From positions 1 through 60,084 of the forward strand of contig CAYFMD010000004.1 in the NCBI GenBank assembly GCA_964344105.1: DNA of 60,084 nucleotides, in the 5' to 3' direction. How positions within the stretch are numbered: the first letter of the stretch is position 1; the number at the start of each line of letters is the position of its first letter. The position numbers and the translations under genes are program-made. Positions 96-47,467 of this stretch are shown here, piece after piece. Under the pieces are notes generated by a model. That model saw nothing but the letters and a program-made list of their open reading frames with translations, was not told the origin of the DNA and made no database searches. The stretch comes from Candidatus Woesearchaeota archaeon. Lineage in GTDB: Archaea > Nanobdellota > Nanobdellia > Pacearchaeales > GW2011-AR1.

Positions 96-1499
96 ATGGC
101 AAAAAAGAAACTAGTTGTTATAGGTATTGATGGAGGGACATTTAATGTGATAAATCCTTTTTTTGAGCAAGGATTATTGTCAAATCTCAATAAATTTAGT
201 AAGAGAGGGGTTTTGGAATCTACGATGCCTCCTGGAACTGGTGTTGCATGGTCAAGTTTTTCTACAGGCAATAAAACAGAGAAAACAAATATTTATGATT
301 TTACAATAGTTGAAGATGATTCTTGGAAGATCAAATTTGTTAATAGAAGGATATTGCAGGGAAAAACATTATGGGAGCATTTGGATGAAGCGGGATTGAA
401 AGGGACTTTCATCAATATCCCATTGAGTTATCCTCCAGACAAAACTAATGGAGTGATTATTAGCGGCATTGATACTCCGAGTAGGTTAAGTAATTATACG
501 CATCCTCCAGAACTTAAGGAAAAATTAAAGGAATTTGATTATGATATTGAAGTTTCCGGAATGAAGGGGCTAGAAGATATTCCTAATGAAGCAGTAAGAA
601 TTTTAGATGCTAGATTGAAAACTGCTAGGCATTTGATTAAAGAAGAGTTTGATTTTTTTGTTGTTCTTTTTAGGGCTAGTGATGTGGTTCAGCATTTTGC
701 TTGGGGAACAGATTATGTTAAAGATGTTTATATGAAGATAGATGAGTTTATTGGAGAGGTCCAGGAAAGAGATGATTGTGAATTAATAGTTATGTCTGAT
801 CACGGACATGAGAAAGTTGATAAGGCATTTAATGTTAATACATGGTTAGAACAGGAAGGTTATCTTAGTACTAAGGTTCAGAAAAAAAGTGTTGCTTCTA
901 GTTTGATAAATAGGGAAAGGATATTCAAGATTTTGGATAGTTTGAATTTGAATTTTGTTATAAGAATGGTTCCAAGATCATTAGGTAAGAAAATTCCTAC
1001 GAAAACTGTTGATTTTGAAGAAGCCATAATTACTGGACTTGTTGAGATGGATAAGACTAAAGCTATAGCTAAGAGGGCCGTTAAGTCTTCGCAGATATTT
1101 TTGAATAAAGAATCTAGGGGAGGGATTGTTAAGAAAGAAGATGAGGATAGGTTGAAGAGTGAAATAAAAAGTAAGTTGCTTTCCTATTTTAGAGGCAAAG
1201 GGTTGAATGTCGAGATTTATACTAAAGAAGAGCTCTATGGAAATAATACCAAGTATGCTCCAGATATAACTCTGTATTTTAGAGAGGAAGGCTATGATAC
1301 ATTGTCTATTTTATCACCTGAGAAACGGTTGTGGGATAAGACGAAGGAACAGGCTACTCACAAGAAAGAAGGGATTATTTTTACAGATATGAATCTTGAT
1401 ATTGAAGGTAGCAATATTATTGATTTATGTCCAACTGTCTTGGATTATTTTGGTATTGAGAAAAAGGATGTTGATGGTAAGAGTTTAATTAAGAGCTGA
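96..1499 (+). CDS. Alkaline-phosphatase-superfamily phosphodiesterase/nucleotide pyrophosphatase-like protein (soluble, COG3379-like)
   Basis: 467 aa; VVIGIDGG metal-ligand motif at N-terminus, PPGTGVAW nucleophile region, MSDHGH metal-ligand motif; paralogous to aa 1-457 of ORF 5046-7484. Confidence 0.7.
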   Translation: MAKKKLVVIGIDGGTFNVINPFFEQGLLSNLNKFSKRGVLESTMPPGTGVAWSSFSTGNKTEKTNIYDFTIVEDDSWKIKFVNRRILQGKTLWEHLDEAGLKGTFINIPLSYPPDKTNGVIISGIDTPSRLSNYTHPPELKEKLKEFDYDIEVSGMKGLEDIPNEAVRILDARLKTARHLIKEEFDFFVVLFRASDVVQHFAWGTDYVKDVYMKIDEFIGEVQERDDCELIVMSDHGHEKVDKAFNVNTWLEQEGYLSTKVQKKSVASSLINRERIFKILDSLNLNFVIRMVPRSLGKKIPTKTVDFEEAIITGLVEMDKTKAIAKRAVKSSQIFLNKESRGGIVKKEDEDRLKSEIKSKLLSYFRGKGLNVEIYTKEELYGNNTKYAPDITLYFREEGYDTLSILSPEKRLWDKTKEQATHKKEGIIFTDMNLDIEGSNIIDLCPTVLDYFGIEKKDVDGKSLIKS

Positions 1500-2363
1500 T
1501 TTTAGTTTTTGAAATTCTTCTTCTGATAGCCCTGCATCACCTATTTCTGATCCCCTTTCAAAATCATGGAAGTCACTTCCTCCAGACATTAATAAGTTTT
1601 CTTTGCTTGCAGTTTCTCTTAGATGATTATTAATCTCATCTGATTTTTCTTCTGAGATCTTCAATATTTTGGAGTAAGGGTAGTCTACTTCTATACCATC
1701 CCCATTTAGTGAAATAAGCTTCTTGATTATATCAGGATACTCATTAAGATACCTGCCAGGATGTGCTAGAATTGAAATTCCTCCTGCAGAATTTATTACA
1801 TTTATTGCTTTTTCCATTGTTATTTTATCCCGGGGATGGAAGGCTGGTTTTCCTTCTCCAATTAGTTCATTAAAAACCTGGTCAACTGTAGAAAATTTTT
1901 CAGGATATTTTTCAATCAATATTCTGGCTATATGGGGCCTTCCTAGAGAATCATCTGCTTTTTTTAATAATTCTTCAAGGGTAATCTCATATCCAAGATT
2001 ATTTAGTTTTTTAATTATAATTTTCTTTTCTTCAACCCTGTCCTTTTTTATTTTATCTAGAAAATTAATTAGTTCTTGGTTATTATGGTCGATGAATAAC
2101 CCTAAAATATCTATTGTGGGTTTGAATTCAGATTCCTTGCAGCTTATTTCAATTCCAGGTATAAACTCTATCTGCTTGTCTTTAGAATAATCTATAGCCT
2201 CTTGTATCCCCGATACAGTATCATGATCAGTTATAGCTATCGCCTTCATTTCATTTTTTATTGCTATATCAATGACTTCAGTAGGAGAGAAATTACCATC
2301 TGATGCTGTTGAGTGTATTTGCAGGTCTATCTTTTCCATTTTATTTGCTTTTATACATAGCAT
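1485..2363 (-). CDS. PHP-domain metal-dependent phosphoesterase
   Basis: IDLQIHSTASDG...AIAITDHDT N-terminal PHP motifs, later ILAHPGRY and GGSDFHD motifs; true start probably the internal MEKIDL. Confidence 0.8.
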   Translation of the reverse strand: MLCIKANKMEKIDLQIHSTASDGNFSPTEVIDIAIKNEMKAIAITDHDTVSGIQEAIDYSKDKQIEFIPGIEISCKESEFKPTIDILGLFIDHNNQELINFLDKIKKDRVEEKKIIIKKLNNLGYEITLEELLKKADDSLGRPHIARILIEKYPEKFSTVDQVFNELIGEGKPAFHPRDKITMEKAINVINSAGGISILAHPGRYLNEYPDIIKKLISLNGDGIEVDYPYSKILKISEEKSDEINNHLRETASKENLLMSGGSDFHDFERGSEIGDAGLSEEEFQKLKSALN

Positions 2364-2604
2364 ATATTGCTATATAAAATAAGGTTATCATTATAGCCAA
2401 AGTGTATTTGAATATAAGTGGCTCTTGATATATTAGTAATGCATATATCAATGCTATAACATTTGCTACAAGACATATTATGAATAAGAATAGGCTAACG
2501 CCATCGGTACTTCTAGTCTTTATTGTTTTAAGAATTTGTGGGACTAGCATTAGTGAAAATAAAATTGTTGCAGTCCATCCTAAAATTTGTGATAAGTTTT
2601 CCAT
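2341..2604 (-). CDS. PQ-loop / SemiSWEET-like small membrane transporter
   Basis: 87 aa, three predicted TM helices, PQ motif in LMLVPQILKTIKTRSTDGVS. Confidence 0.6.
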   Translation of the reverse strand: MENLSQILGWTATILFSLMLVPQILKTIKTRSTDGVSLFLFIICLVANVIALIYALLIYQEPLIFKYTLAIMITLFYIAIYAMYKSK

Positions 2605-2605
2605 G

Positions 2606-5044
2606 TTATTGTTGTAAACTATTAAGGAATTTAATTACATTCCTCAAGTCAGAATCTCCTCCCTTTTCATCAATTAATAAGATTTTATTTGACTCGATTT
2701 CTTCTTTTGCGTTATTTATTAGGAATGATTTTAAGGCTCCATTGTAGTTAAATGCGATTCCAATTCCACCGTTTTTTGAAGTTTGTAAAATTCCCTGGCT
2801 ATCTCCGAATGTGTCTCCCATGTGGATAATATTTTGAGGATCTGCTACATTGAGATTATCTTTTGCATACTGAATTATTTTTTTAGATTTTGATTCTTCA
2901 CTTTCTACCCCTAAAATAATATTTCCTGTTGCTTTGATTTGGTCATATATTGGATCTGCATTTCTTCCCTTAAAGTAATCTATTACATAATCTTCTAGTT
3001 CTTTTTCTGATAAGGGTATACCATTTAGCTGGAATTCCAATATATTGCCTATTTGACCATGAATCTTATCTCTTCCAATCCTCTCCCTAATTGCATAGAT
3101 AGTTACGGAGTATCCTGTTGAATTTATTACCAAAGGGAAATTATTCTCTGATAGATAATTTGTGAATTCATTAAAACCGGTTACATAATCCATGTGCTTT
3201 AAAGTGTATTCTATTGCCTGTCTTAATGTTAGGCCATTAGTTAGTCTCCCTGCAAGATTGAATGCTTCTTCTATGCTAGCTTGACCATCAGTTTGTTTGT
3301 TGAATAATTCTTTGGCTTCAAGATATTCTTTTTCTCCGATGTAGATGCGGATCATATCGCTCATAGTATGTTGTTTTACTAGAGTGCCGTTTAAATCTGA
3401 GGAGAAAATTTTTGTTTCAAGATGTTTCTTGATTTTTCTTAGCAATTCATTAAATCTTTCCACCCTTAAAGATTCTTTTTTAACAGGGTGCATTTTTACA
3501 AATTTTCCATTTTCATCTTGATGGATTTCCTTTCTTTCGTAAGAACTATCTGTTGTAAAGGGTTGCCCTATTTTGTTTCTATAAGGGAATATTTTTATGT
3601 GAATGTGTTCATCTGGATGCTTGCATTTACCATAGGTTGCTATTGGTATTCTTTCACTGGATCCAGACTCTTGTTCAATTATTTTTCCTATTGCATAACT
3701 AATTTTGGCAAAGATTATTCCATAATTTTTAGCCAATTCTTGATTTTTGTTTATTTCTGAAAAGTATCTTAGATGAGAAGTAGGAATTATCTGGATGGAG
3801 AAATCTTCATTAATATCCCCTCCAGTTCTTGGAGAAAGTGTTGCAAACCATCCATTCTCTCCATCTCCAACCCTGCAGATAATTTGTGATCCATACTCAT
3901 TAGAATTGTTTTCCGATTGTGACTCCTTGCAGAATTGACATTCATCTCCTTCAAATTTGTTTTTTTCTGGAAGTATTATTTTGAGATATTCTTTTTCTCT
4001 TCTTTCATTTAGGTAGCTATCAAAATATCCAACTACTACCCGATAATATTCTTCACCATTTTTGTTATTTACTCTCTCTAGGATACCTTGTGCCTCTAAT
4101 GTTTCTCCAGAATATCCCAAATGGGCATAATCTCTTGAATAGAAAACTATTCTTTTTATTGGTACTTCTGAATAACCTTCCAGTATCTTAGAATTCTCTA
4201 TTTTATAAAAACCAGGCCGGACTATTGAGTTATAATGGTCTTTTATTTTTCCTTGGATTTTTATAGTGCCCAATTCCTCGTATTTTTCTTCCCCCCATTT
4301 AAACCACCTTTCATCTTCGTTTTCAACGCAAAATATTACGAATAAAGAATCTCCGAAATAACCCTCTGATTTCTTTCTAGACATTGAATGAAGGAATTCC
4401 TCTTTTGAGAAAAATTTAGACCTATTTCTTCTGTTGAAAAAATCTATCCATTGATCCTCTGTTTTCCATTTCAGTAGTGGATGGTTAACTGATTCTAAGA
4501 ATTCCATCAGCTTCCAGTACTTTGTCTTACCATGTATCACTATATTTATATCAGAAATTTTTGATGAGTAATGTCCTACAAGGCTAGAATATGTTATTCC
4601 CAAATCTTCTAATCTTAATCCACTTTGAAGGATAAGGTTTGTGAAATCATGAACTAGTTTTAAATGTGGATCGAGACTTTCTCTGCTTATGCTCATTAAT
4701 TCAGAGATTCCTCTTTTTGGAGAGTAGATTCTTTCTATCTGGTCTATAGGTAGTCCAAAAAATAGCCTATTGCCTTGATGAATATCACTTCTTAATATAT
4801 AGTGAGGGTAATTTTTTTTAAATTCCTCTAAATACCTTTTTAATTCCTCCTTATCAGACCAGAGATTCAACCGGTTCATCTTTCTGCCGGCTATAAATCT
4901 TGATTGCAATATAGAAGAACTGATCTTTTCTGTAGGGATGTATTTTGGCTTAACCAATATTGCGTTTAAAGGATGTTCATTCCCGTAAACTTGAAAATGC
5001 AATCCATCCTTACTTGTGACAATGGCTGATTCATAGAAATGCAT
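2606..5044 (-). CDS. Multidomain protein: Pol-beta-type nucleotidyltransferase + OB-fold module (aa 1-358), HIT-like domain (aa 366-530), HAD-like hydrolase domain (aa 545-812)
   Basis: NTase signature GHYSSKISDINIVIHG (DxN); OB-like IKIQGKIKDHYNSIVRPGFYKIENS; HIT-like CQFCKE + EHIHIKIFP; HAD motif I SSDLNGTL and motif IV MGDTFGDSQG. Confidence 0.6.
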   Translation of the reverse strand: MHFYESAIVTSKDGLHFQVYGNEHPLNAILVKPKYIPTEKISSSILQSRFIAGRKMNRLNLWSDKEELKRYLEEFKKNYPHYILRSDIHQGNRLFFGLPIDQIERIYSPKRGISELMSISRESLDPHLKLVHDFTNLILQSGLRLEDLGITYSSLVGHYSSKISDINIVIHGKTKYWKLMEFLESVNHPLLKWKTEDQWIDFFNRRNRSKFFSKEEFLHSMSRKKSEGYFGDSLFVIFCVENEDERWFKWGEEKYEELGTIKIQGKIKDHYNSIVRPGFYKIENSKILEGYSEVPIKRIVFYSRDYAHLGYSGETLEAQGILERVNNKNGEEYYRVVVGYFDSYLNERREKEYLKIILPEKNKFEGDECQFCKESQSENNSNEYGSQIICRVGDGENGWFATLSPRTGGDINEDFSIQIIPTSHLRYFSEINKNQELAKNYGIIFAKISYAIGKIIEQESGSSERIPIATYGKCKHPDEHIHIKIFPYRNKIGQPFTTDSSYERKEIHQDENGKFVKMHPVKKESLRVERFNELLRKIKKHLETKIFSSDLNGTLVKQHTMSDMIRIYIGEKEYLEAKELFNKQTDGQASIEEAFNLAGRLTNGLTLRQAIEYTLKHMDYVTGFNEFTNYLSENNFPLVINSTGYSVTIYAIRERIGRDKIHGQIGNILEFQLNGIPLSEKELEDYVIDYFKGRNADPIYDQIKATGNIILGVESEESKSKKIIQYAKDNLNVADPQNIIHMGDTFGDSQGILQTSKNGGIGIAFNYNGALKSFLINNAKEEIESNKILLIDEKGGDSDLRNVIKFLNSLQQ

Positions 5045-5045
5045 A

Positions 5046-7484
5046 CTAAACTAGAGCCTTTAGATACTCTTTTTCTCCCCTATCATTAGTATAAGTATCA
5101 AAATACCCAAGGACTAATTGGTAGAAATCTCCTTCCTTGCTAGTTACCTTTTCTAATAATCCACAAGCTTCTATGTTTTCTCCTTTTTTGGCTTGGAGTA
5201 CGAACGGTCTTGACCAAGTCACAATTCTTTTTATTGGTACTTCCTCATGGCCTTCAATAATTTTAGAATTCTCTATCTCATAGAATCCAGGCCTTACAAT
5301 TGAATTGTAATGGTCTTGGATTGTTCCACGGATCTTTACAGTCCCTAATGGTTCGTGATTTGCTTCCCAATCATACCAGAATTCTTCTGGTTTTTCTACA
5401 ACAAATACTGAAAATACATGTCCATTGAAAAATCCATCATCTTTTTTTCTTACCATATTTAAAACGTATTCTTGTTCGTTATATAGTGTTGATACAACTC
5501 TTTCTCGGTAGTATTTAGCCCAATCTTCTGCAGACTTCCATTTTAGAGAAGGGTGTTTTACAGTCTCAAGGAAATTTATTACCTCCCATCCCTTTTCTTT
5601 CCCATAAACTATTATGTCAATATCTGATTTTCCTGGAGTGTAGTTTCCTAACAGAGTAGAATGGCTTATACCTATATCATTTAGGCTAACCCCTGTTTGT
5701 AAGATCATGTTTATGAAATCTTTTACCGATTTTAGGTAATCATCAAGATCTCCTGTTGGAATGCTCATTAATTGTTTTAGCCCGTCTCTGCAATCATATG
5801 ATTTTTTGATTTTTTCTTCAGGAAGTCCTAAGAACCAGTTTTTATGCTTATCACAATGATATATACATTCGGGATATTTACTCTTTAAAATTTTTAAATT
5901 TTCTTCAACAATTTCTTTTTTCTTGAAAAGATTAAATCTGTTCACAGATTTTGAAAACATGTATCTTTTCTTCATCCCTACAAATTCTAGTAAGTCTGTT
6001 GGAATGTACTTTGGTTTTCCTATAACAAATCCTTCTGGATGGCTTGATGCATAAACCTTAAATTGCATTCCGGTATGTGAATCCATTAAGCCTGCTTCAT
6101 GAAAATCCTTTTTCTGTACTAAAGATTTTGGTTTAATGTCTTTTGGTATCTCTACATCTAAAATGTCTAATATTGTTGGACAAATTTGTGCTATATCAAT
6201 TTCTCCAAGATTTCCTTTTTCTATGTCTTTGTCTTTGATTATAAATGATCCTTGTCTTGAGTGGCCGGCAGAATCTGCTCCTACTGCTGTTTCCCATGAA
6301 TAAAGGCCTTCTTGACCTAAATCAGGGTTGCTTGCCCACCTTAGATCGTCAAAGTATACAGTCAGATCTGGGCACTCGGGATTTGAAGTGTCTTCATAGA
6401 TATCTTCCTTATTGTAGACTTTTGTGTCTAAAGGATTTCCATTGTCATCCTTTATTTGCACAAGCTTTTCTGAGATTTCTGCTCTTATTTTTTGATAATC
6501 TTTTACCTTATCCTTGTTGATATAAACTCTTGCATTATAGGCTCCACCCCCCCATGCAATACTTTTTTCCATGTCTACAAATTCATTTTTGAATCTTGTT
6601 TTTTCTGAAAGATCTATCCCTTCTTTTAGGACCAAATATCCTTCTTTTATTAACCAGTTATTTATGTTTATTTTCCCCTCTTGTTTAACCATTCCGTGAT
6701 CAGAAGTAACAATAACTGATGTGTTTTCATCTAGGAGCCCTAGTAATTCCCCTAATTTCTTATCTAGATAGATGTAATAATCCTTCAATGCATTTTGATA
6801 TTCTGAATTTGGAACAAATTTCCTGTGAGTTTTATCGAAGTGGTGCCAAATCATATGTTGTAGCCTGTCTGATCCAATCATGACACTCATGAAAAAATCC
6901 CATTCTTCATTTACTAGTTGATCTTTTAGCAATTCTATTTGCATATCGGTCATTTTGTATACTTTTTCTATTAATTCGCTTATTGGAAGTCCCTTGTGCC
7001 CTCCAAGTCCAACTGCTACATCAAAGAATAAGTCTGGCTGCTCCATTGATTTTATTTTTTCTTTTAGGGATTCTGGATAGCAGCATGCGCCATTTAAGTT
7101 TGGAGTTAGAAATCCGCTCACCATTCTCCCATTTATTGGCTTAACTGGGTAACTTAAGGGCACGTAGAGTGCTATAGATTTCTTTTTTTCACCCAAAATA
7201 TCCCAAATTAACTTTTGCTTTATTTTTTTGGAATGCATTATCTGTGACTTTCCATTTTCATCCTTGTAAGTATAGCTAAATATACCAAGTTCACTTGGAT
7301 CCTTTCCAGAGAGCATAGAGTTCCATGCCATAATTGTCGAGGGAGGGATAGTGGAGTTTAGGCGTGCGTAACTTCCTTCTGAAGCTAGCTTGCTAAGATT
7401 AGGCAAGTCTTCCTTCCATTTATCAAAGATAAGCTCTGGTGGAGCGCCGTCGATACCAAATACAAATACCTTCTTTTGTGTCAT
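5046..7484 (-). CDS. Fusion of AlkP-superfamily phosphodiesterase domain (aa 1-457) and Pol-beta NTase + OB-fold module (aa 463-812)
   Basis: FVFGIDGAPP, PPSTIMAW, TSDHGM, DSAGHS AlkP ligand motifs; C-terminal half aligns with N-terminal half of ORF 2606-5044 (GNYTPGKSDIDIIVYG; VKIRGTIQDHYNSIVRPGFYEIENS). Confidence 0.6.
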   Translation of the reverse strand: MTQKKVFVFGIDGAPPELIFDKWKEDLPNLSKLASEGSYARLNSTIPPSTIMAWNSMLSGKDPSELGIFSYTYKDENGKSQIMHSKKIKQKLIWDILGEKKKSIALYVPLSYPVKPINGRMVSGFLTPNLNGACCYPESLKEKIKSMEQPDLFFDVAVGLGGHKGLPISELIEKVYKMTDMQIELLKDQLVNEEWDFFMSVMIGSDRLQHMIWHHFDKTHRKFVPNSEYQNALKDYYIYLDKKLGELLGLLDENTSVIVTSDHGMVKQEGKININNWLIKEGYLVLKEGIDLSEKTRFKNEFVDMEKSIAWGGGAYNARVYINKDKVKDYQKIRAEISEKLVQIKDDNGNPLDTKVYNKEDIYEDTSNPECPDLTVYFDDLRWASNPDLGQEGLYSWETAVGADSAGHSRQGSFIIKDKDIEKGNLGEIDIAQICPTILDILDVEIPKDIKPKSLVQKKDFHEAGLMDSHTGMQFKVYASSHPEGFVIGKPKYIPTDLLEFVGMKKRYMFSKSVNRFNLFKKKEIVEENLKILKSKYPECIYHCDKHKNWFLGLPEEKIKKSYDCRDGLKQLMSIPTGDLDDYLKSVKDFINMILQTGVSLNDIGISHSTLLGNYTPGKSDIDIIVYGKEKGWEVINFLETVKHPSLKWKSAEDWAKYYRERVVSTLYNEQEYVLNMVRKKDDGFFNGHVFSVFVVEKPEEFWYDWEANHEPLGTVKIRGTIQDHYNSIVRPGFYEIENSKIIEGHEEVPIKRIVTWSRPFVLQAKKGENIEACGLLEKVTSKEGDFYQLVLGYFDTYTNDRGEKEYLKALV

Positions 7485-7528
7485 TATGTATAATTATATA
7501 TAATGACTATTTAAGGATTGTTGTAGTT

Positions 7529-8143
7529 TTATATAAGAAATTCCTCCAACTTCTTTCCTTCTGCAATCTCTGCTGCTACTTCCGTTAATCTTGCGGCATA
7601 TCTTTCATAATCGTCTTGTGGATGGGTCCCCTTGACAATTGGACTGATTCTAATATACTGCCGTCCATCAGAATCAGTTTCAGGTTTTTCAGATAATCTA
7701 GAAAGTGTAGTGTCTGTTGGAAGTGGCTGATTTAAAGTCCCCCAAGGGGCAACTACTTTTTGATGTATGTGTCCAGGAATGGTATTTCTCCCAGAGATCA
7801 CCTTTCCACAGGTCATTGAGGCTAAAGGATCGGTAATCCCTCTTTCATATTGAAGCACTGCGAGAGATTGATAGGAGATGGCTTGAACCATTCCAAAATT
7901 GGAATACGCGCCATTTGGTAAATTAATTCCAGAAAAACTCCCGATATGTCCTACTGGAAATAACATGAATGTAGCACCTCCTGCAGTACTTCCGTCTAAG
8001 TCCTGATAGGTGTTCTTTTGAAAAGTTACCTGCCAATCTGAATCTGGGTCATTGCCAGTCCTATAGATTACAGCCCCTCTTTCTCCAATAGTCCCAACTT
8101 CCCATTTGGCTTCAATACAGAGTTTACAATCCTCATCTGACAT
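7529..8143 (-). CDS. Stand-alone atypical HIT-like protein
   Basis: 204 aa; N-terminal CKLCIEA (HINT-like CxxC) and GHIHQKVVAP triad-like motif; resembles the middle domain of ORF 2606-5044; looks more GC-rich by eye than its neighbours. Confidence 0.45.
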   Translation of the reverse strand: MSDEDCKLCIEAKWEVGTIGERGAVIYRTGNDPDSDWQVTFQKNTYQDLDGSTAGGATFMLFPVGHIGSFSGINLPNGAYSNFGMVQAISYQSLAVLQYERGITDPLASMTCGKVISGRNTIPGHIHQKVVAPWGTLNQPLPTDTTLSRLSEKPETDSDGRQYIRISPIVKGTHPQDDYERYAARLTEVAAEIAEGKKLEEFLI

Positions 8144-8183: not shown

Positions 8184-8411
8184 TTAAATATAACCAATAG
8201 TTTTCATCCTTTTTCGAATTTCTTCCTCTTCTTTTTTAGTGATCATTCCATCTTTTGATTCACCCGAAAGTACCTGCCTTAGGACGAAGTTTACGTAAGA
8301 AGATACACTTGGCATTCCAGTTCCTTTAATCTTCTCTTTTATTTTATCGATTAAAGGCATTGGTAGAGAAATAGTTCCATATTTTACCTTATTGTCATTT
8401 TCCCTTTTCAT
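8184..8411 (-). CDS. Ribbon-helix-helix (CopG-like) DNA-binding protein
   Basis: 75 aa; TISLPMPLIDKIKE beta-strand/helix pattern followed by SVSSYVNFVLRQVL; acidic tail ending RKRMKTIGYI. Confidence 0.5.
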   Translation of the reverse strand: MKRENDNKVKYGTISLPMPLIDKIKEKIKGTGMPSVSSYVNFVLRQVLSGESKDGMITKKEEEEIRKRMKTIGYI

Positions 8412-10585: not shown

Positions 10586-11331
10586 AAGGCATTTAACTCA
10601 TCCATATCTTTATGAGTATCCATGCACCTCCAAAAATCATCATGTTTGTATATTGCCAAGTTTCCTTCTCTTGATAATCTTTCTAAGGGTTCTCTTTCTA
10701 AGGAAGTTTTATCATCTGCTATATAATCAAAGATAGAAGGTTCAAAAACAAAAAAGCCTCCATTGATGTACCCTTCACTAACCTGAGGTTTTTCTTCAAA
10801 ACTAACTACAAGATTTTCCCTTACATTTAGTTCTCCAAATCTTGAAGAAGGTCTAACGCCAGTAACTGTCGCAAATTTCCCATGAGATTCATGAAATTCC
10901 ATTAGCTTGTTTATATCTATATTGGCAACTCCATCCCCGTAAGTAACCATAAACCTATTGTCCCCAATTACTTGCTTTAATCTTTTTATCCTTCCACCAG
11001 TCAGTGTATTTAACCCAGTGTCAACTATAGTTATATTGAACATTTCTTGATTATTTGATAGGAGATCTATTTTGTTATCTTTCAAATTGATTGTGAAATC
11101 ATTATGCATAAGGATGAAGTTCATGAAATATTGTTTTATATCTTCTACCTTGTAGCCACCAGCTATTACAAAATCTGTATAACCATATTTAGCATAGATT
11201 TTCATTATATGCCAAATTATTGGCTTTCCTCCAATCTTCACCATGGGTTTTGGTTTAAATTCAGTTTCTCCCTTTAATCTAGTTCCAAATCCTCCTGCTA
11301 GGATAACTATCTTGCAATTTTGTTCATTCAT
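10546..11331 (-). CDS. rfbF: Glucose-1-phosphate cytidylyltransferase
   Basis: KIVILAGGFGTRLKGETEFKPKPMVKIGGKPIIWHIM is the classical RfbF N-terminus. Confidence 0.9.
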   Translation of the reverse strand: MNEQNCKIVILAGGFGTRLKGETEFKPKPMVKIGGKPIIWHIMKIYAKYGYTDFVIAGGYKVEDIKQYFMNFILMHNDFTINLKDNKIDLLSNNQEMFNITIVDTGLNTLTGGRIKRLKQVIGDNRFMVTYGDGVANIDINKLMEFHESHGKFATVTGVRPSSRFGELNVRENLVVSFEEKPQVSEGYINGGFFVFEPSIFDYIADDKTSLEREPLERLSREGNLAIYKHDDFWRCMDTHKDMDELNALWEEGNAKWKIWD

Positions 11332-12302
11332 TTTAATATATCTCCTTTGTCATGGAAAAGCTTTACACTATATCCTTCTAAAATTGGCCACCCATGAGGA
11401 TATCCATAATTTGAATCATGAGTATGAATTAGATGTTTATTTCTAACAAAGAACTTGTTTAAATGAGATTCATCAAGCCAGGTTGCAATTATTTTATTTT
11501 TGAAATCATTTTCGATCCCTTCATTTATTCTTTTGCACATTTCTATCACATAATTTGTTTTTCCACCCCAAAAGCATGCTTGTCTGTAAATAGATCGGTC
11601 ATCATTTTCTGTTAATGCTGCTTTTGATTCTGAGTTTAATTCAAACTGGCCTGGAGCATTTAGAAAGCATGGATGTCTCATTGCAAATATTGGTTGAGTG
11701 TGGCAAAAAAATTCTTCCTCTGTTGTAATGTCTTTTGCATACATATCTGAATCTATGTACACAACATGCGAATAATCCTTTAGTTTCTCTGCTATGCTTG
11801 CAATAAATTTGAATTTAGATAGAGTCATGACTGCAGGTCCGCCATATTTAACTTGGATTATTTTTACATTGTCCTTATCTTTAAAATAATCATAATCGAT
11901 TTGGTCCGTAAATGCAAAAAAATCTTTTTCAGTTTCTGGCAAGAAGTTTTGATTTATTGTTGAATAGAATCTTGGGAAAAACTTGACATAGTCTTGTGAT
12001 CCCATAAATATTATTGCTATCTTTTCACATTTCTGTTGTTGGAATACAGGATTCTTATTTTTTAGAGAATTCTTTAGGGCGCTCCTGGATCTTAGGAATT
12101 TTAGATATCTTACAAATTTATCTCCAAAAACATTTTCAATTAAGTATTTGAGAGGATGTCTTTTTTTAACTAGCTCTATGTTTAGACTTCTTATTCCATC
12201 CATCGCCTCCCATTGGAAATTACCCTTTTTATCAGCCTTATTTTCCATAGATAACATTGAGTATGTTAATTTAAAAAGATTGTTGGAGTGCGTTTCACAC
12301 AC
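11328..12302 (-). CDS. GT6-family (ABO / alpha-1,3-Gal(NAc)-transferase-like) glycosyltransferase
   Basis: FFAFTDQ, VVYIDSDM (DxD), RHPCF, CFWGG and ATWLDESHLNKFF match hallmark GT6 blocks of vertebrate GTA/GTB; real start probably the internal MLSMENK. Confidence 0.8.
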   Translation of the reverse strand: MCETHSNNLFKLTYSMLSMENKADKKGNFQWEAMDGIRSLNIELVKKRHPLKYLIENVFGDKFVRYLKFLRSRSALKNSLKNKNPVFQQQKCEKIAIIFMGSQDYVKFFPRFYSTINQNFLPETEKDFFAFTDQIDYDYFKDKDNVKIIQVKYGGPAVMTLSKFKFIASIAEKLKDYSHVVYIDSDMYAKDITTEEEFFCHTQPIFAMRHPCFLNAPGQFELNSESKAALTENDDRSIYRQACFWGGKTNYVIEMCKRINEGIENDFKNKIIATWLDESHLNKFFVRNKHLIHTHDSNYGYPHGWPILEGYSVKLFHDKGDILK

Positions 12303-12309
12303 TCCTGCC

Positions 12310-12362
12310 CCCTACTTTTTATCCCCTACCCACCAATCCATTCTCTTCAATAAAAAGTAGGG
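12310..12362. repeat. Perfect 13-bp inverted repeat (ccctactttttat / ataaaaagtaggg) with a 27-nt C-rich spacer
   Basis: Read directly, in the divergent region between the GT6 gene and the radical SAM gene. Confidence 0.7.
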
Positions 12363-12402
12363 TTGGGATAGATGGGTTGATCATAATTAACCTTAAAAAA
12401 CC

Positions 12403-13389
12403 TTGAATCATGTACTAGAATTAGTGAAAATGAATCTAAAAAGACAGGTATATTTGATGCTTCCTAAACCATTGCAGAAAAAGACTAAAGATTTTTACTA
12501 TGGTAAATGGATTGATAGTTTGTATAAAAGAAAATATAGAAAATTCTATGGGTTGAATGATTTTTTTGATACAATAGCCCTTGAAACTACTACTTATTGT
12601 AATTTGAGATGTTCTTTTTGTCCAAATAGTAATCATGAAAGAGGGTTGCAAAAAAATGAGAAGAAGATGGATAAGGAATTGTTCAAGAAAATAATTAATG
12701 AATTGGCTGAGATTGGATATAGGGGGAAAGTTGCGTTGTATTCATATGGAGAGCCTTGTACTGATGAAAGATTGCCAGAACTAGTTCAATATGCCAAGCA
12801 AAAATTGCCAAACGCCTTTGTGGAGATTAATAGTAACGGATTTTTGTTGACAGTTGAGTTATATCAGAAGCTGGTTAGATCAGGAATAGATAAGATTTAT
12901 GTTAGCCAATATGCAGATAAGATGCCTCCAAGTATTGTTAAGGTATATGATTTCCTAAGGGAGAATCCAGAATTTCCAGATAGGATAAAATATAGGATAT
13001 TTAATGCAGAGACATATCCATTGCTTTCAAATAGAGGAGGAGAGATTGAGATGGAAGAATCTGTAAATTATGAAAGACCTATTTGTGGCTATCCACATCA
13101 CGCGCAGACAATAGATTGGGAAGGTAACTGGGTTTTATGTTGTAATGATTACCATAGTAGTGTTAAATTTGGGAATCTAGCTAAAGAGACTATAATGCAG
13201 ATATGGAATAAGCCTTACTTCAAAAAGATAAGAGAAGATACAAATAATGGAATTTATGATTTAGAAATCTGCAAAATTTGTGTGGGTCAGAAAAGTGCTA
13301 AGAAGGATCAAGATCTAGAAAGTAATAATTTGGTTACTATAAGATCTTCTTTACCTAGTTCTCCAAGCACAAGTAATGCTAGTGCATAA
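12403..13389 (+). CDS. Radical SAM / SPASM-domain protein
   Basis: CNLRCSFC (Cx3Cx2C) cluster motif; Cys-rich C-terminal region (CGYP..VLCCNDY..CKIC); track start is TTG, ATG at 12430 is more likely. Confidence 0.75.
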   Translation: MNHVLELVKMNLKRQVYLMLPKPLQKKTKDFYYGKWIDSLYKRKYRKFYGLNDFFDTIALETTTYCNLRCSFCPNSNHERGLQKNEKKMDKELFKKIINELAEIGYRGKVALYSYGEPCTDERLPELVQYAKQKLPNAFVEINSNGFLLTVELYQKLVRSGIDKIYVSQYADKMPPSIVKVYDFLRENPEFPDRIKYRIFNAETYPLLSNRGGEIEMEESVNYERPICGYPHHAQTIDWEGNWVLCCNDYHSSVKFGNLAKETIMQIWNKPYFKKIREDTNNGIYDLEICKICVGQKSAKKDQDLESNNLVTIRSSLPSSPSTSNASA

Positions 13390-16283: not shown

Positions 16284-16997
16284 ATGGAAGAGAGTACAGA
16301 AAATTTTGAAAAGGAGGTTTCAAAATTCCCTGAGAATGACTTTGATAATAACTCTGAATCAAAGTCATCTGTAAAGAAGTTGATAATATCTCCTCATGTT
16401 GATGATGAGATTTTGGCTTGCGGGGGAATTTTAGATTCAGATAGTTTTGTGTATTATTGTGGAATTGATGAGAGCAAAGTTGCTCCAGATCCCGTGCATA
16501 GGATTCCAATGGGAGCTAGAGAAGCTGAATTGAAAAGAGTTGCTGAGTTTCTTGGATATAGATATGAGATTAATAAAAATACCAAAGTTAACTTCTATAG
16601 TGAATCTCAACATGAATTGAAAGATAAATTTGAGAGGTTAATTAACGAATTGAGGCCTGAAATGATATTTATCCCAATCCCTAGCTATAATCAAGATCAT
16701 AAAGTGATCTATGATGCATTGCAGGTTGCGCTAAGACCTCATGATAAGAATTTTTTTGTAAAGAGAGTTTTGTTATATGAACAGCCACATTCTATTATGT
16801 GGGAGCCTAATGATTATAGGCCAAATTATTTTGTTCCAATAGATATTGAAAGGAAGATTAGTGCTTATAAGATGCAAGAATCGCAGGTTAGAGCCTTTAG
16901 ATCTCCAGAACTTGTTAAGGCGATTGCAAAACTTAGGGGAGGTCAAGCTGGATGCGATTATGCAGAAGGTTTTTTTATCCAGAGGTGGGTTGAATGA
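16284..16997 (+). CDS. PIG-L/LmbE-family N-acetylsugar deacetylase
   Basis: LIISPHVDDEILACGG is the PIG-L zinc-binding signature. Confidence 0.75.
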   Translation: MEESTENFEKEVSKFPENDFDNNSESKSSVKKLIISPHVDDEILACGGILDSDSFVYYCGIDESKVAPDPVHRIPMGAREAELKRVAEFLGYRYEINKNTKVNFYSESQHELKDKFERLINELRPEMIFIPIPSYNQDHKVIYDALQVALRPHDKNFFVKRVLLYEQPHSIMWEPNDYRPNYFVPIDIERKISAYKMQESQVRAFRSPELVKAIAKLRGGQAGCDYAEGFFIQRWVE

Positions 16998-17713
16998 AAT
17001 TTGCATATTTTGGATATAGATCCTGGGCAGAGGATATTCTTAGAAATTTGGAAGATAGTGAATTTGAGATAGATGCGTTCACCATTCCTGATACAGAATA
17101 TAAGTCTAATAAATTTAGAGGTGAAGATATGAAAGTCTTTAATCCAAAAGAGATTGCTGATTTGGATTTAGGGGATTATGATGCATTGCTATTTTACGGA
17201 TGGTCTTGGATAATCAAACAAGATATTGTTGATAGCCAGGTATGTATTTGTCTACATCCATCTCCTTTGCCAAAATATAGGGGAGGCAGTCCAATACAAC
17301 ACCAGATAATTAATGGAGAGGATGAAAGTGCAGTTAGTTTGTTTAAGATGGGCAAGGAATTGGATGATGGGCCAATTTACTATCAAGAAAATTTTTCTTT
17401 AGATGGGAGGTTGAAGGATATTTTTGATAGAATAGTTGAGATTGGAGGCAGGCTGACTATCAAATTACTAAAAGATTTTGTTGAAAATAAGGCTAATCCG
17501 GTTGAGCAAGATCAGAGCTTGGCTACAGAATATAAGAGAAGAAAGCCAGAGGAAAGTGAGTTAACTGCTGATAAGATTGCAGAAATGACTGGTAGGCAGA
17601 TATATGATTTTATTAGAGCGCTAGAGGATCCGTATCCTAATGCTTACATTTTAGGCAGTGATGGAAAGAAGGTTTTACTGAAATTAGCTGATTTTGAAGA
17701 TGGTACTGATTGA
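16994..17713 (+). CDS. Formyltransferase (Fmt/sugar N-formyltransferase-like)
   Basis: CLHPSPLPKYRGGSPIQHQIING and ELDDGPIY match the formyl_trans_N catalytic His/Asp region. Confidence 0.75.
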   Translation: MKFAYFGYRSWAEDILRNLEDSEFEIDAFTIPDTEYKSNKFRGEDMKVFNPKEIADLDLGDYDALLFYGWSWIIKQDIVDSQVCICLHPSPLPKYRGGSPIQHQIINGEDESAVSLFKMGKELDDGPIYYQENFSLDGRLKDIFDRIVEIGGRLTIKLLKDFVENKANPVEQDQSLATEYKRRKPEESELTADKIAEMTGRQIYDFIRALEDPYPNAYILGSDGKKVLLKLADFEDGTD

Positions 17714-33959: not shown

Positions 33960-34026
33960 CTTAAGAGATCAAAGATCCCTAGTGACGTCCAGCACATAAT
34001 TCGTTTCGCTTTGCTCAACGAATGAA

Positions 34027-34097
34027 TGCGCGGGCCGGGATTCGAACCCGGGTCGACTGGTTGGAAGCCAGTAATTCTGCCACTGAACTACCCACGC
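34027..34097 (-). tRNA. tRNA-Gly (anticodon UCC), no encoded CCA, no intron
   Basis: Hand-folded: acceptor GCGUGGG/CCCGCGC + A73, D arm GUUC/GAAU, anticodon stem ACUGG/CCAGU with loop CUUCCAA, T arm CCGGG-UUCGAAU-CCCGG. Confidence 0.9.
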
Positions 34098-34177
34098 ATA
34101 AAATACACTCAGTTTTTTACTTTATAAGGTTTCTTGTTTTAGTAAAAATATAAAAACTAGAATTTGTTTTAAGATTT

Positions 34178-47348: not shown

Positions 47349-47467
47349 GAAGAAAGACAACTCGTGAATTTCACTTCCCTTCGGAAACTATTTCCACAAC
47401 ATAACCTGCTTAGCTTCCCTATTCGGAATGGTAAGGGGCGTTTCCAAGTTATTATGGTCGTCTTCAA
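47349..47467 (-). rRNA. 5S ribosomal RNA (ends uncertain by about 5 nt)
   Basis: Minus strand reads ..CCCUUACCAUUCCGAAUAGGGAAGCUAAGCAGG.., matching the conserved 5S loop B/helix III region; terminal helix GAAGACGAC/GUUGUCUUU closes the molecule. Confidence 0.75.

Follow-up and report, generated by a model that had tools for sequence, protein, structure and literature searches.

A seven-gene island at the left end of the window (the whole stretch of DNA that was analysed, 60,084 nucleotides) seems, with moderate likelihood, to serve the synthesis of PAPS and the recycling of pAp for glycan sulfation, two paralogous nucleotidyltransferase-OB proteins (NTase-OB A and B) and a HIT-like protein (HIT1) replacing the ATP sulfurylase Sat. 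This reading is drawn purely from comparative genomics, which shows an operon, widespread in DPANN archaea, made of recurrent slots whose predicted occupants are an RHH-like protein, an NPP-type or pyruvate-kinase (PK)-like protein, a sulfate activation system, a pAp 3'-phosphatase and often an APS kinase. The best explanation for the sulfate activation slot is that it holds either a canonical ATP sulfurylase or the trio A, B and HIT1. If true, a known pathway, sulfate activation, would involve a previously unknown enzyme, an uncharacterised nucleotide-transfer trio. No account of this gene system was found in the literature, which agrees with the preliminary description of this DNA, where the island was put forward as a candidate undescribed system.

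Gene and domain content of the island

The genes and their domains are the following (coordinates are positions in the window).

8184..8411, minus strand: putative RHH-like regulator that opens the operon, 75 aa
7529..8143, minus strand: HIT2, divergent HIT-like paralogue encoded on its own, 204 aa, homologous to HIT1 (phmmer)
5046-7484, minus strand: ORF of 812 aa, NPPn + NTase-OB A
6114..7484, minus strand: NPPn, AlkP-superfamily nucleotide pyrophosphatase/phosphodiesterase-like domain (PF01663), aa 1-457 of ORF 5046-7484
5049..6113, minus strand: NTase-OB A, aa 458-812 of ORF 5046-7484, predicted to be the catalytic subunit
2606-5044, minus strand: ORF of 812 aa, NTase-OB B + HIT1 + HAD-like domain
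3971..5044, minus strand: NTase-OB B, aa 1-358 of ORF 2606-5044, partner of A that probably lacks catalytic activity
3410..3970, minus strand: HIT1, single-domain GalT-like HIT fold (AF2 and Foldseek), aa 359-545 of ORF 2606-5044
2609..3409, minus strand: HAD-IB-like hydrolase domain (sub-threshold TIGR01488), aa 546-812 of ORF 2606-5044
2341..2604, minus strand: SemiSWEET/PQ-loop transporter, 87 aa, accessory component (PF04193, 1.2e-13)
1485..2363, minus strand: PHP (TrpH/YciV-type) phosphoesterase, 292 aa, predicted pAp 3'-phosphatase (PF02811, 1.9e-12)
96..1499, plus strand: NPPc, convergent second AlkP/NPP-family protein, 467 aa (PF01663 Phosphodiest, 5e-31)

Every gene and domain of the phosphoester- and nucleotide-processing island outlined in the preliminary description was thus recovered in place by the ORF list, the Pfam and NCBIfam profile searches and the AF2 models. 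The 3' ends of the NPPc and PHP genes overlap by 15 nt, and glycan islands surround the operon, in the window and at other loci.

A and B are genuine paralogues, sharing 45% identity across 356 aa (E 3e-106), and the NTase-OB layout (AF2, pLDDT 92) runs from a beta/alpha domain at the N-terminus through a minimal Pol-beta NTase core to an OB fold at the C-terminus. A carries the Pol-beta NTase motif GKSDIDI (5613-5627), whereas B carries SDINI (4541-4555), with Asn in place of the second Asp. Thus, the two Pol-beta NTase and OB modules announced earlier do exist, but in the copy located in 2606-5044 the active site is degenerate, with SDIN and not SDID. Where the motif pattern was found, it is of the SDID type in 52 of 52 A copies and D-x-N in 47 of 47 true B copies; the B-scored copies with DID are single-copy form IV genes only. 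B is probably a pseudo-enzyme partner devoid of catalytic activity, and we infer that catalysis belongs to A and not to HIT1. The family has no characterised member, and NTP_transf_2 is sub-threshold in 24 of 25 NTase-OB proteins. The best structural matches of the OB fold (Foldseek) are SSB, RPA and the anticodon-binding domain of LysRS, all weak (E ~0.01); matches of the NTase-OB model to the cGAS and SpoT folds are also weak.

The HIT-like proteins have no sequence match in Pfam or PDB. The ten best PDB matches of the HIT1 model (AF2, pLDDT 92) all belong to the HIT superfamily, including the GalT-like 6k5z, HINT1, DcpS and aprataxin (probability up to 0.98, E about 0.02). HIT1 carries CQFC (3929-3940) and HIHIK (3593-3607), and its invariant residues in the alignment are C11, C14, H66, H122, H124 and K126. 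HIT2, whose homology to HIT1 comes from phmmer matches at four loci (L001, L013, L024 and L027), shares the invariant columns C, C, H, HxHxK, Q and D, with an N-terminal CKLC at 8117-8128 and HIHQK at 7757-7771. The structure search on HIT1 therefore backs the HIT-like assignment proposed earlier for the two atypical domains, but their motif is HxHxK and not HxHxH.

The NPPn domain matches PF01663 over aa 6-385 (5.4e-42) with intact motifs (GIDG, Thr nucleophile, SDHG metal site). As no signal peptide could be read from the sequence of the NPP proteins, they would act in the cytoplasm. The PHP protein matches the NCBIfam models NF041577 (2e-50) and NF047791 (7.5e-49) of 3',5'-bisphosphate phosphatase and RNase RNM, with scores below the equivalog cut-offs (171 vs 400 bits). 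It also matches the PDB entries 9etk (1e-31), 2yb1 (2e-26) and 7ug9, a 5'-3' exoribonuclease (9e-26).

The other components are less clearly assigned. The HAD-like hydrolase claimed earlier is a candidate with a sub-threshold match to TIGR01488 (4.2e-7, 30 bits for a cut-off of 45), an atypical motif I, DLNGT (3383-3406), and phosphoserine phosphatase as the closest PDB protein (0.0055); in L011 and L012, it is a gene of its own between HIT1 and PHP. In the same way, the RHH assignment is suggested only by a sequence pattern and a weak NikR-like match (0.087). Its C-terminal tail reads ...R(M/L)KxxGY(I/L), and its homologues are found directly upstream of the NPP gene at about 30 loci. SemiSWEET homologues adjoin the operon or sit inside it in L021, L032, L039 and L042; another one belongs to the same locus but lies away from the operon in L058.

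Conservation in DPANN and exchange with ATP sulfurylase

The core of the island displays the same order in 70 DPANN loci: A (SDID), B (SDIN), the HIT-like protein and then the 3'-phosphatase. The tandem A-B pair is found in 58 of the 70, B being directly downstream of A at all loci that have it, and, among the 55 loci with at least two downstream genes, a HIT gene is present within three genes downstream in 46 and a 3'-phosphatase gene in 48. Since this arrangement is kept in 70 independent loci, it is far from chance. The comparison of neighbourhoods across DPANN genomes thus confirms the earlier proposal of a real and syntenic multi-gene system acting on nucleotides or phosphoesters, and speaks against a fortuitous juxtaposition.

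In DPANN, the homologues of A are stand-alone proteins of ~356 aa (59-68% identical), and NPPn is a separate gene at most loci. However, Rosetta-stone fusions recur: NPPn with A (L011, L016, L021, L024, L025, L027), B with HIT1 (L007, L014, L016, L021, L022, L061, P0216) and PHP with APS kinase (L030, L045). Further fusions associate NPPn, a SpoT-like HD domain inserted in some cases and A, or an IMPase-like protein and APS kinase directly after A-B+HIT1. The upstream slot of the operon holds an NPP-type AlkP enzyme or a PK-like protein instead. A convergent NPPc-type gene has the same position in L004, L006, L010, L011 (orthologue, 6e-185), L016 and L021 among others, and a CDP-alcohol-phosphatidyltransferase-like membrane protein is encoded after the operon in about 20 loci.

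Proteins of four unrelated families can occupy the 3'-phosphatase slot: PHP, SpoT/Mesh1-like HD, IMPase/CysQ-like and DHH. The known activity that these families have in common is the 3'-dephosphorylation of pAp-type nucleotides. This is the pattern expected of a pAp phosphatase. Considering the APS kinase fusions seen in the operon context, this activity is favoured over an RNase AM-like one, and PHP is predicted to be a pAp (3',5'-ADP) 3'-phosphatase.

An APS kinase gene (PF01583, 2e-44) is adjacent or fused at 24 of the 70 loci and sulfotransferases are encoded at at least 10. Among the 39 loci that span 15 kb or more, 21 contain at least one of the two; their absence within 10 kb in the 18 remaining ones counts against sulfate. 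When four loci were picked by APS kinase similarity alone, two proved to be PK-Sat-APSK(-PHP) and two A-B-HIT1-PHP plus APSK. The most telling comparison involves L081 (Sat) and L018 (A-B-HIT1), which are collinear: all other genes are orthologous (41-82% identity), Sat occupies the exact position of A-B-HIT, and the swapped order of APSK and PHP is the only other difference. More Sat loci carry RHH, NPPn, PHP or DHH, APSK and sulfotransferase genes without A-B-HIT1; for example, an RHH-family gene precedes Sat in L086, where NPPn is also present. Conversely, neither Sat (motifs, phmmer with DPANN Sat) nor CysD was found in 73 A-B loci and the 60-kb window, the PP-loop proteins of A-B loci being, by sequence, only sugar amidotransferase-like. 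This exclusivity holds at the locus level, with five Sat loci seen. The 60-kb window has no detected APS kinase, sulfotransferase or Sat gene, but its sulfation gene set may be incomplete because the operon abuts its left end.

The APS kinases, the sulfotransferases, the four interchangeable types of pAp phosphatases and the in-situ replacement by Sat suggest that the activated compound is most likely sulfate (APS/PAPS). Of the four options of the preliminary description, the one that supplies the glycan cluster next to the island comes closest.

Proposed mechanism and nearest known systems

APS is formed by transferring a nucleotidyl group onto an oxyanion, and the GalT/HIT group to which HIT1 belongs includes known ADP-sulfurylases/APS:phosphate adenylyltransferases, which makes A-B-HIT1 chemically plausible as a sulfate activator. 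A, with its intact two-metal site (G..SDID + Glu), would pair with B to transfer AMP from ATP onto the sulfate oxyanion, yielding APS and PPi. HIT1, with its CxxC/His zinc site, His nucleophile and HxHxK motif, could relay AMP through His-AMP, an intermediate used by HIT-type ADP-sulfurylases, or could proofread and hydrolyse mis-adenylylated products. By removing PPi or another product, the A-fused NPP domain, perhaps together with the HAD-like one, would drive the unfavourable reaction. PAPS would be made by an APS kinase encoded elsewhere in the genome and consumed by sulfotransferases, whose inhibitory by-product pAp would be turned into AMP by PHP.

Sat (PUA_2 + PF01747), found in sat-cysC-(cysQ) PAPS operons, shares with A-B-HIT the slot between PK/NPP and APS kinase/pAp phosphatase genes and the predicted net reaction, ATP + sulfate -> APS + PPi. 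However, they have no sequence or fold relationship (DPANN Sat finds nothing by phmmer in A-B-HIT loci), and Sat is one protein whereas the trio involves three polypeptides or domains. The use of three proteins where one Sat suffices is an unexplained need that counts against the sulfate reading. CysD/CysN, a hetero-oligomer with one catalytic subunit and a non-catalytic partner, parallels the predicted roles of A and B, but its folds (PP-loop ATP pyrophosphatase and GTPase) are unrelated and no GTPase is present here.

The best fold match of HIT1, a GalT-like uridylyltransferase, relates it to the GalT-branch transferases (ADP-sulfurylase/APAT, Apa1/Apa2 Ap4A phosphorylases), and its CxxC...H...HxH pattern resembles the zinc site and His nucleophile of GalT. 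ADP-sulfurylase/APAT-type enzymes interconvert APS and His-AMP. Nevertheless, HIT1 is a single domain of ~185 aa without Pfam match whereas GalT has a tandem-repeat fold, its motif is HxHxK instead of HxHxQ/HxHxH, and the known GalT-branch enzymes work in the APS-consuming direction. As for PHP, it aligns end to end with TrpH/YciV proteins (the 3',5'-bisphosphate nucleotidase Cv1693; RNase AM) but scores far below the equivalog cut-offs, and sequence alone does not separate the two activities.

The MJ1086 (UniProt Q58486) family, archaeal 'predicted nucleotidyltransferases', comprises distant full-length homologues of NTase-OB (profile E 1e-27 to 1e-41; direct phmmer against MJ1086 1e-22 to 1e-35). 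This uncharacterised family has the same three-domain layout, and tandem paralogue pairs also exist in Thermoproteota; in the two pairs inspected, both paralogues carry SDID, unlike in the A-B pair. Its context is methanopterin, F420 and methanofuran biosynthesis and not sulfation: one homologue lies between CofC/CofD and CofE (L080), one overlaps CitG in a methanopterin/methanofuran cluster (L076) and one is fused to HPPK beside pterin genes (P0306/L078). The distant members hence have a function different from sulfate activation.

Alternative readings

These distant relatives in methanopterin/F420 clusters count against sulfate, and we know of no Pol-beta NTase that uses it. It is conceivable, albeit rather unlikely, that A-B-HIT1 adenylylates or cytidylylates another small molecule (phospho-sugar, phospho-hydroxy-acid or polyol phosphate) for a glycan or lipid phosphodiester, following a CofC/CofD- or CitG/CitX-like logic, APS kinase and pAp phosphatase being merely co-regulated neighbours in a glycan-decoration island. 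Besides the cofactor clusters, this would fit the CDP-alcohol-phosphatidyltransferase-like gene, the PK-like and AlkP (mutase-like) proteins upstream and the neighbouring 'Sulfatase'-family proteins, which lack the FGly motif and resemble Ser/Thr-type phosphotransferases. However, PK and the CDP-alcohol-transferase-like gene are also found at Sat loci and do not discriminate. Furthermore, neither the presence of Sat in the exact A-B-HIT1 slot of collinear orthologous loci nor the RHH, NPPn, PK and pAp phosphatase genes common to Sat loci would be accounted for.

The processing of RNA/tRNA or DNA ends, close to the end healing evoked earlier, is unlikely. The NTase-OB pair would bind, extend or cap a nucleic-acid end, HIT would strip 5'-adenylates or caps, PHP would be an RNase AM-like 5'-3' exonuclease or a 3'-phosphatase, and NPP and HAD would clean the ends. 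The OB fold, most like those binding ssDNA or RNA, and the replacement of HIT1 by ProRS at 8 loci point in this direction and count against sulfate; end processing also has in its favour the equal closeness of PHP to 7ug9/the RNase RNM model and to pAp phosphatase, the aprataxin and DcpS matches of HIT1, and the overlap of the MJ1086 gene with a gene showing a borderline NYN RNase match. Moreover, NTase, HIT, HAD and PHP domain types also co-occur in aprataxin/PNKP/ligase or PolX (Pol-beta + PHP) systems. However, the ProRS loci look like a single clade (37-43% identity to the query) and probably reflect one event, the matches from Foldseek, with E values of 0.01 or above, are weak, and the island contains no detected RNA genes or Rfam elements and no ligase, kinase or DNA-binding module. 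Its core is swapped in situ for Sat, sulfotransferases flank the operon, the phosphatase slot may also hold HD or IMPase/CysQ-like+APS kinase, and the neighbourhood is devoted to glycan biosynthesis at nearly every locus.

Nucleotide scavenging in a reduced archaeon, another earlier option, appears very improbable. Imported (oligo)nucleotides or cofactors would be broken down into NMPs by NPP and PHP, NTase and HIT would activate these again, and SemiSWEET would bring in a precursor. Every domain acts on nucleotides, the NPP proteins would be cytoplasmic, SemiSWEET recurs in about 5 loci and, as far as we know, DPANN do not synthesise nucleotides de novo; yet SemiSWEET occurs in a minority of loci only, and scavenging predicts neither the APS kinase fusions nor the sulfotransferase neighbours nor the displacement by Sat.

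Lastly, an anti-virus defence or second-messenger system, with NTase as signal synthase and PHP, HD and NPP as signal degraders, is hardly credible: NTase and phosphodiesterase combinations occur in CBASS-like systems, and the weak cGAS and SpoT fold matches and the HD domain fused between NPPn and A recall them, but the only PADLOC match is a noise-level one of PHP, an effector gene is absent, the core is swapped for Sat, and 59-68% identity across DPANN phyla in a fixed glycan-island context is atypical of defence islands.

Domain composition of the island

ORF calling recovered all seven ORFs of the preliminary description at the same positions. They are listed below; A and B designate the two copies of the NTase-OB module, HIT1 and HIT2 two HIT-like domains, and NPPn and NPPc the two NPP-type domains of the AlkP superfamily.

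96-1499, forward strand: NPP-type AlkP protein of 467 aa (NPPc; PF01663, 5e-31)
1485-2363, reverse strand: PHP phosphoesterase of TrpH/YciV type, 292 aa
2341-2604, reverse strand: PQ-loop/SemiSWEET protein, 87 aa
2606-5044, reverse strand: 812-aa ORF carrying B, HIT1 and a HAD-IB-like C-terminus (sub-threshold)
5046-7484, reverse strand: 812-aa ORF with an NPP-type N-terminal half (NPPn; PF01663, 5.4e-42) followed by A
7529-8143, reverse strand: 204-aa ORF without family match (HIT2)
8184-8411, reverse strand: 75-aa ORF without family match, small RHH-like

The domain anatomy proposed earlier was also right after three refinements, which concern the SDIN motif of one NTase-OB copy, the HxHxK motif of the HIT-like domains and the DLNGT motif of the HAD domain. 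The two NPP proteins score 145 and 109 bits against a PF01663 cut-off of 23 and display the metal-ligand and Thr-nucleophile motifs (GIDG, PPST, DRLQH and SDHG). The PQ-loop protein, a single unit of the expected size (about 85-100 aa), reaches 51 bits with PF04193 (cut-off 22) and stays under the cut-off of the NCBIfam SemiSWEET_2 model. The PHP protein matches the NCBIfam models of pAp-phosphatase and RNase RNM with E values of about 1e-49 to 1e-50, below the equivalog cut-off, and its PDB matches are 9etk, 2yb1 (Cv1693, 2e-26) and 7ug9. The HAD domain obtains 30 bits with TIGR01488 (cut-off 45) and an E value of 0.028 with Pfam HAD. Its motif I, at 3383-3406 of the window, is DLNGT, with an Asn at D+2 instead of the expected DxDx[TV]. 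The domain thus resembles the HAD-IB fold at sub-threshold level only, and with this motif I it may not act as a standard phosphatase.

The C-terminal 355 aa of ORF 5046-7484 (A) are paralogous to the N-terminal 358 aa of ORF 2606-5044 (B), with 45% identity (E 3e-106). In the AF2 model (pLDDT 92), this module starts with a beta/alpha domain and ends with an OB fold, and between them lies a minimal Pol-beta NTase core that carries GKSDIDI and a conserved Glu. The motif expected from Pol-beta NTases, hG[GS]x9-13 D-h-[DE]-h followed on a later strand by a third carboxylate, is found in A as LLGNYTPGKSDIDI, with E240 of the module as the invariant Glu. In contrast, B lacks the second carboxylate: all 47 true B copies with a recognisable motif pattern carry SDIN, versus a DID-type motif in all 52 such copies of the upstream A. 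Rare single-copy NTase-OB genes score marginally nearer B, yet keep DID. With PF01909 (NTP_transf_2), the window proteins score 17.4-17.9 bits, the gathering cut-off being 21, and sub-threshold matches are obtained for 24 of 25 family members. The distant homologue MJ1086 exceeds the cut-off, at 39.6 bits. Stand-alone homologues of about 356 aa, sharing 59-68% identity, occur in Woese-, Nano-, Pace-, Aenigm- and Iainarchaeota. A Foldseek search of the PDB with the full model retrieved no full-length relative, only weak OB-fold matches (E about 0.01) and very weak ones to cGAS/SpoT, and the NTase-OB component is without characterised relative. Nothing usable came from PDB sequence searches with NPPn, HIT1/HIT2 or NTase-OB, the last as a single sequence and also as a profile.

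HIT1 (aa 359-545 of ORF 2606-5044) is homologous to HIT2, and CxxC, His, HxHxK, Gln and Asp columns are invariant in both. Instead of the HIT triad (H-h-H-h-H-h-h), HIT1 carries HIHIK and HIT2 HIHQK, the Lys of HxHxK being invariant across 28-34 sequences. No match to PF01230, PF11969 or PF01087, nor any PDB sequence-profile match, was obtained with single sequences or with the profile of the HIT-like alignment, and some homologues bear the label 'HIT family hydrolase' from source pipelines. When the AF2 model (pLDDT 92) was compared with the PDB by Foldseek, the top 10 matches all belonged to the HIT superfamily (GalT-like, HINT1, DcpS and aprataxin; probability up to 0.98, E about 0.02, TM 0.3-0.5). 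This component is therefore predicted to adopt a HIT fold, despite the divergent triad and the lack of sequence-profile matches.

A conserved operon in DPANN glycan islands

ORFs were called in 70 genome loci, a sample selected by A, and labelled with the domains of the window. In this test, of a kind proposed in the preliminary description, the genes co-occur as neighbours across DPANN genomes and form a conserved operon rather than a chance cluster. The NTase-OB genes are in tandem in 58/70 loci. Among the 55 loci with enough downstream sequence, the next gene is HIT-like in 46 and encodes ProRS in eight. A 3'-phosphatase lies at most three genes away in 48/55 loci (PHP in 41 of these), and an NPP gene is fused or at most two genes upstream in 36/63, usually with a small RHH-like gene before it. 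A pyruvate-kinase-like (PK) gene takes the NPP position in six loci. In L011, the locus closest to the window, the order is RHH, NPPn+A, B, HIT1, HAD, PHP and convergent NPPc, B, HIT1 and HAD being separate whereas they form one 812-aa protein in the window.

Many of these genes are also found fused. NPPn+A and B+HIT1 fusions each occur in the window and in six loci, the latter also in protein P0216. Three loci encode an NPPn+HD+A fusion, and HD+A is found in locus L023 and protein P0093. This HD domain of about 240 aa, identified by motif only (the RelA/SpoT/Mesh1 hydrolase signature HS...AALHDVxEDT; nothing in Pfam at E<0.001), has three arrangements: between NPPn and A, at the N-terminus of A, or stand-alone in place of PHP (L024:7808-11071, L025:7754-11071, L027:7814-11077, L023:2531-4411 and L056:7695-8414). 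One NPPn-A-B-HD locus, L058 (JAGXBC010000002.1), is labelled 'Patescibacteria group bacterium'; it is either a mis-binned DPANN contig or the result of a transfer into CPR bacteria.

When all 1,056 flanking genes were clustered, the neighbourhoods, like the surroundings of the operon in the window, proved to be glycan-biosynthesis islands, with GT4 and GT2 glycosyltransferases, epimerases, Wzx, sugar nucleotidyltransferases, DegT and UGDH. An APS kinase gene (PF01583, 2e-44) is adjacent or fused in 24/70 loci. Usually, it immediately follows PHP or precedes A in divergent orientation, and several are fused to PHP (two loci) or to an IMPase/CysQ-like domain (L007 and L029; in L007 directly downstream of A and B+HIT1). 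In at least 10 loci, L011 among them, the operon has sulfotransferase genes (Sulfotransfer_1/2/3) as immediate neighbours. Four unrelated families are found in the phosphatase slot that follows HIT1, namely PHP (TrpH/YciV), HD, IMPase/CysQ-like and DHH, the last from a locus with a canonical ATP sulfurylase (Sat). Their common denominator is the removal of the 3'-phosphate from pAp-type nucleotides, and pAp is the by-product of PAPS-dependent sulfotransferases. Together, APS kinase, sulfotransferases and phosphatase slot point to sulfation.

Exchange with ATP sulfurylase and proposed function

The PAPS route requires an enzyme that forms APS, and none was apparent. Neither the Sat motif GRDHAG, nor phmmer with two DPANN Sat queries, nor a search for CysD gave any match in 73 NTase-OB loci or in the window; a second Sat motif, RNPxHxxH, failed on the DPANN Sat control itself. 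The PP-loop proteins of L023 and L024 were considered as CysD and rejected, their sequence features resembling those of N-acetyl-sugar amidotransferases. A-B-HIT1 shows no sequence homology to Sat (PF01747). Therefore, the claim is that it would work like Sat, not that it is a Sat.

Four DPANN APS kinases were then chosen by APS kinase similarity alone and their neighbours inspected. Two of them (L083 and L084) lie beside A-B-HIT1-PHP. In the two others (L081 and L082), the order is PK, a Sat of 382 aa (PUA_2+ATP-sulfurylase) and APS kinase, followed in L081 by PHP and by the membrane protein of about 280 aa that also occurs in A-B-HIT1 loci. L081 is collinear with the A-B-HIT1 locus L018: all its genes have an orthologue there, in an essentially unchanged order, and besides the swapped order of APS kinase and PHP the two loci differ solely in their core, L081 carrying Sat and L018 A-B-HIT1.

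Identity between the genes of L081 (Sat) and their orthologues in L018 (A-B-HIT1)
NTP-transferase: 65%
Epimerase: 77%
GT4: 67%
PK: 48%
APS kinase: 71%
PHP: 47%
Membrane protein: 54%
Wzx: 41%
Downstream sugar genes: 80-82%

A metagenome scan with DPANN Sat yielded three more Sat loci only, L085 (Sat-APS kinase-PHP and a sulfotransferase), L086 (RHH-RHH-Sat-DHH-NPPn) and L087 (APS kinase-Sat), and A-B-HIT1 is absent from all three. Since Sat and A-B-HIT1 loci share RHH, NPPn, PK, pAp-phosphatase and APS kinase, these genes go with either core. A-B-HIT1 and ATP sulfurylase thus appear to occupy one functional slot, which is the signature of a non-orthologous displacement. The mutual exclusion of the two cores was observed at the level of the locus only. 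One study reports sulfate adenylyltransferase genes in all of its own hydrothermal DPANN MAGs, the gene family being unspecified (PMC8091004).

Several points, this locus-level exclusivity and that survey included, keep two other readings in play, an RNA-related function and the activation of a small molecule other than sulfate. The 60-kb window, whose left edge the operon abuts, has no detected APS kinase or sulfotransferase gene, and neither is found within 10 kb in 18 of 39 long loci. The OB fold weakly resembles nucleic-acid-binding OBs, and a ProRS gene is found in the HIT slot of eight loci that probably form one clade. Rfam and tRNA scans detected no RNA element within the island. A role in defence, an option of the preliminary description, was rejected because the PADLOC scan found nothing beyond a single 17.7-bit PHP match to a candidate model.

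The ProRS are complete and of archaeal type (tRNA-synt_2b, HGTP_anticodon and ProRS-C_1). They replace HIT1 or B+HIT1 between the NTase-OB gene and PHP (L060:11075-12451, L062:6823-8202, L066:11075-12454, L067:11083-12456, L071:11070-12413, L051:12180-13490, L052:6222-7721 and L065), and may derive from a single ancestral insertion in one clade.

It should be emphasized that the slot structure, the interchangeability of A-B-HIT1 and Sat, the active-site asymmetry of A and B and the fusions are established at the level of sequence and gene order. The preferred reading goes further: A-B-HIT1 is probably an APS-forming core, in an operon for sulfate activation and pAp recycling that serves glycan sulfation. 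The link of the operon to PAPS metabolism is the firmer part of this proposal. More tentatively, just short of an even chance in our estimation, the A/B pair and HIT1 would form a third class of sulfate adenylyltransferase, evolutionarily unrelated to Sat and CysDN, two families to which the proposed core does not belong. This class would combine catalytic and pseudo-enzyme Pol-beta NTase subunits with a GalT-like HIT protein. The earlier claim of an undescribed nucleotide-processing system is partly supported. No description of the operon or of the NTase-OB family was found in the searchable literature. The pathway itself would be the known one, in which PAPS is made and pAp recycled.

APS is formed by transferring a nucleotidyl group to an oxyanion, a reaction thus chemically within reach of a two-metal NTase: A, with the pseudo-enzyme B, could move AMP from ATP onto sulfate. 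The CxxC/His/HxH pattern of HIT1 mirrors the zinc site and His nucleophile of GalT, and the known ADP-sulfurylase/APS:phosphate adenylyltransferases belong to the same fold class. HIT1 might relay AMP through a His-AMP intermediate or edit wrong adenylates. NPPn fused to A, and possibly HAD, would remove PPi or another product and so pull the unfavourable equilibrium. In PK-type loci, pyruvate kinase could regenerate ATP from the ADP of APS kinase, and PHP would hydrolyse pAp. We favour A over HIT1 for the formation of the P-O-S bond because NTase-OB is constant and HIT1 missing from ProRS-type loci, a weak argument in a sample selected by A.

Sulfate activation is a central reaction for which we know of no enzymes other than Sat and CysDN. 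If true, the existence of a third, unrelated enzyme would amount to a clear case of non-orthologous displacement, and DPANN metabolic reconstructions in which only Sat or CysDN is counted as evidence of sulfate activation would have to be corrected. It would also suggest that sulfated surface glycans are common among DPANN episymbionts, and the pan-archaeal MJ1086 family would gain its first functional handle.

The MJ1086 family and the surroundings of the operon

A profile search of 1.84 billion representative proteins retrieved 915 relatives of NTase-OB. Among the distant full-length relatives of about 340 aa are the uncharacterised MJ1086 of M. jannaschii (Q58486) and proteins of Methanococcus voltae, Vulcanisaeta, Thermofilum and Helarchaeota. 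Their contexts are those of cofactor biosynthesis (methanopterin, methanofuran and F420 gene clusters):

L076:5001-7062: distant NTase-OB overlapping CitG, in an MCH/Fae/MfnB/ATP-grasp cluster
L077:3986-6077: tandem paralogue pair beside CofE, CitG, FTR and MTD
L080:3955-6074: tandem pair between CofD-CofC and CofE
P0306/L078:5626-7143: NTase-OB fused to HPPK, near pterin-binding and flavoprotein genes
L075:4475-7023: distant NTase-OB homologue of the MJ1086 family

In the tandem pairs of Thermoproteota, both copies keep SDID. The MJ1086 gene overlaps MJ1085 and precedes a GHMP-kinase-family gene, which we take to be mevalonate kinase. MJ1085, considered as a divergent AlkP, shows no similarity to this superfamily and has a borderline NYN match instead. 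We infer that the MJ1086 family may comprise NTases that act on small-molecule oxyanions or form phosphodiesters, a reading into which a DPANN branch that adenylylates sulfate would fit. By extension of the third-class reading, they would be oxyanion (sulfate or phosphate-ester) nucleotidyltransferases. To our knowledge, some steps of methanopterin/F420 biosynthesis are still without enzyme, and the distant homologues could be candidates for missing phosphodiester-forming steps of this type.

Around the operon, a membrane protein of about 280 aa is often encoded after APS kinase or PHP, in A-B-HIT as well as Sat loci (L018:14274-15125, L012:15102-15935, L081:9471-10286 and about 20 other loci). 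It carries a variant of the CDP-alcohol phosphatidyltransferase signature, DxxNGxxAR...G...E...H, and scores 21.7 bits with PF01066, just below the cut-off.

The small RHH-like proteins share a conserved C-terminal tail, (V/I)(K/R)ERL(K/R)xLGYL(D), that of window 8184-8411 ending in ...EEIRKRMKTIGYI. This tail also closes several neighbouring 'Sulfatase'-family proteins and one protein beside the convergent NPPc of L069. It is present in 18/1,056 flanking proteins (L004:8349-8594, L004:16208-17668, L053:5292-6485, L060:13365-14747, L069:13565-14989 and others), 16 of the 18 being in the RHH-like and 'Sulfatase' families. The tail may serve all these proteins as a common peptide for docking or oligomerisation, instead of belonging to a DNA-binding fold. 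The flanking 'Sulfatase' (PF00884) proteins (cluster-10; L051:14588-15937, L004:16208-17668, L060:13365-15882 and others) have a Ser/Thr-rich sequence in place of the C/S-x-P-x-R formylglycine motif, and for this reason look like LtaS/EptA-type transferases rather than true sulfatases.

In the adjacent glycan island of the window, the stretches 11328-13389 and 16994-18548 encode a GT6-family glycosyltransferase (PF03414), a radical-SAM/SPASM protein and a formyltransferase whose gene lies beside that of a FolD-type methylene-THF dehydrogenase/cyclohydrolase, an adjacency that suggests N-formylated sugars. The only RNA genes detected in the window are tRNA-Gly(TCC), at 34026-34098, and 5S rRNA, at 47352-47465. 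SecDF, SufS/SufBD and a rhodanese-domain protein are encoded at 31.5-41 kb.
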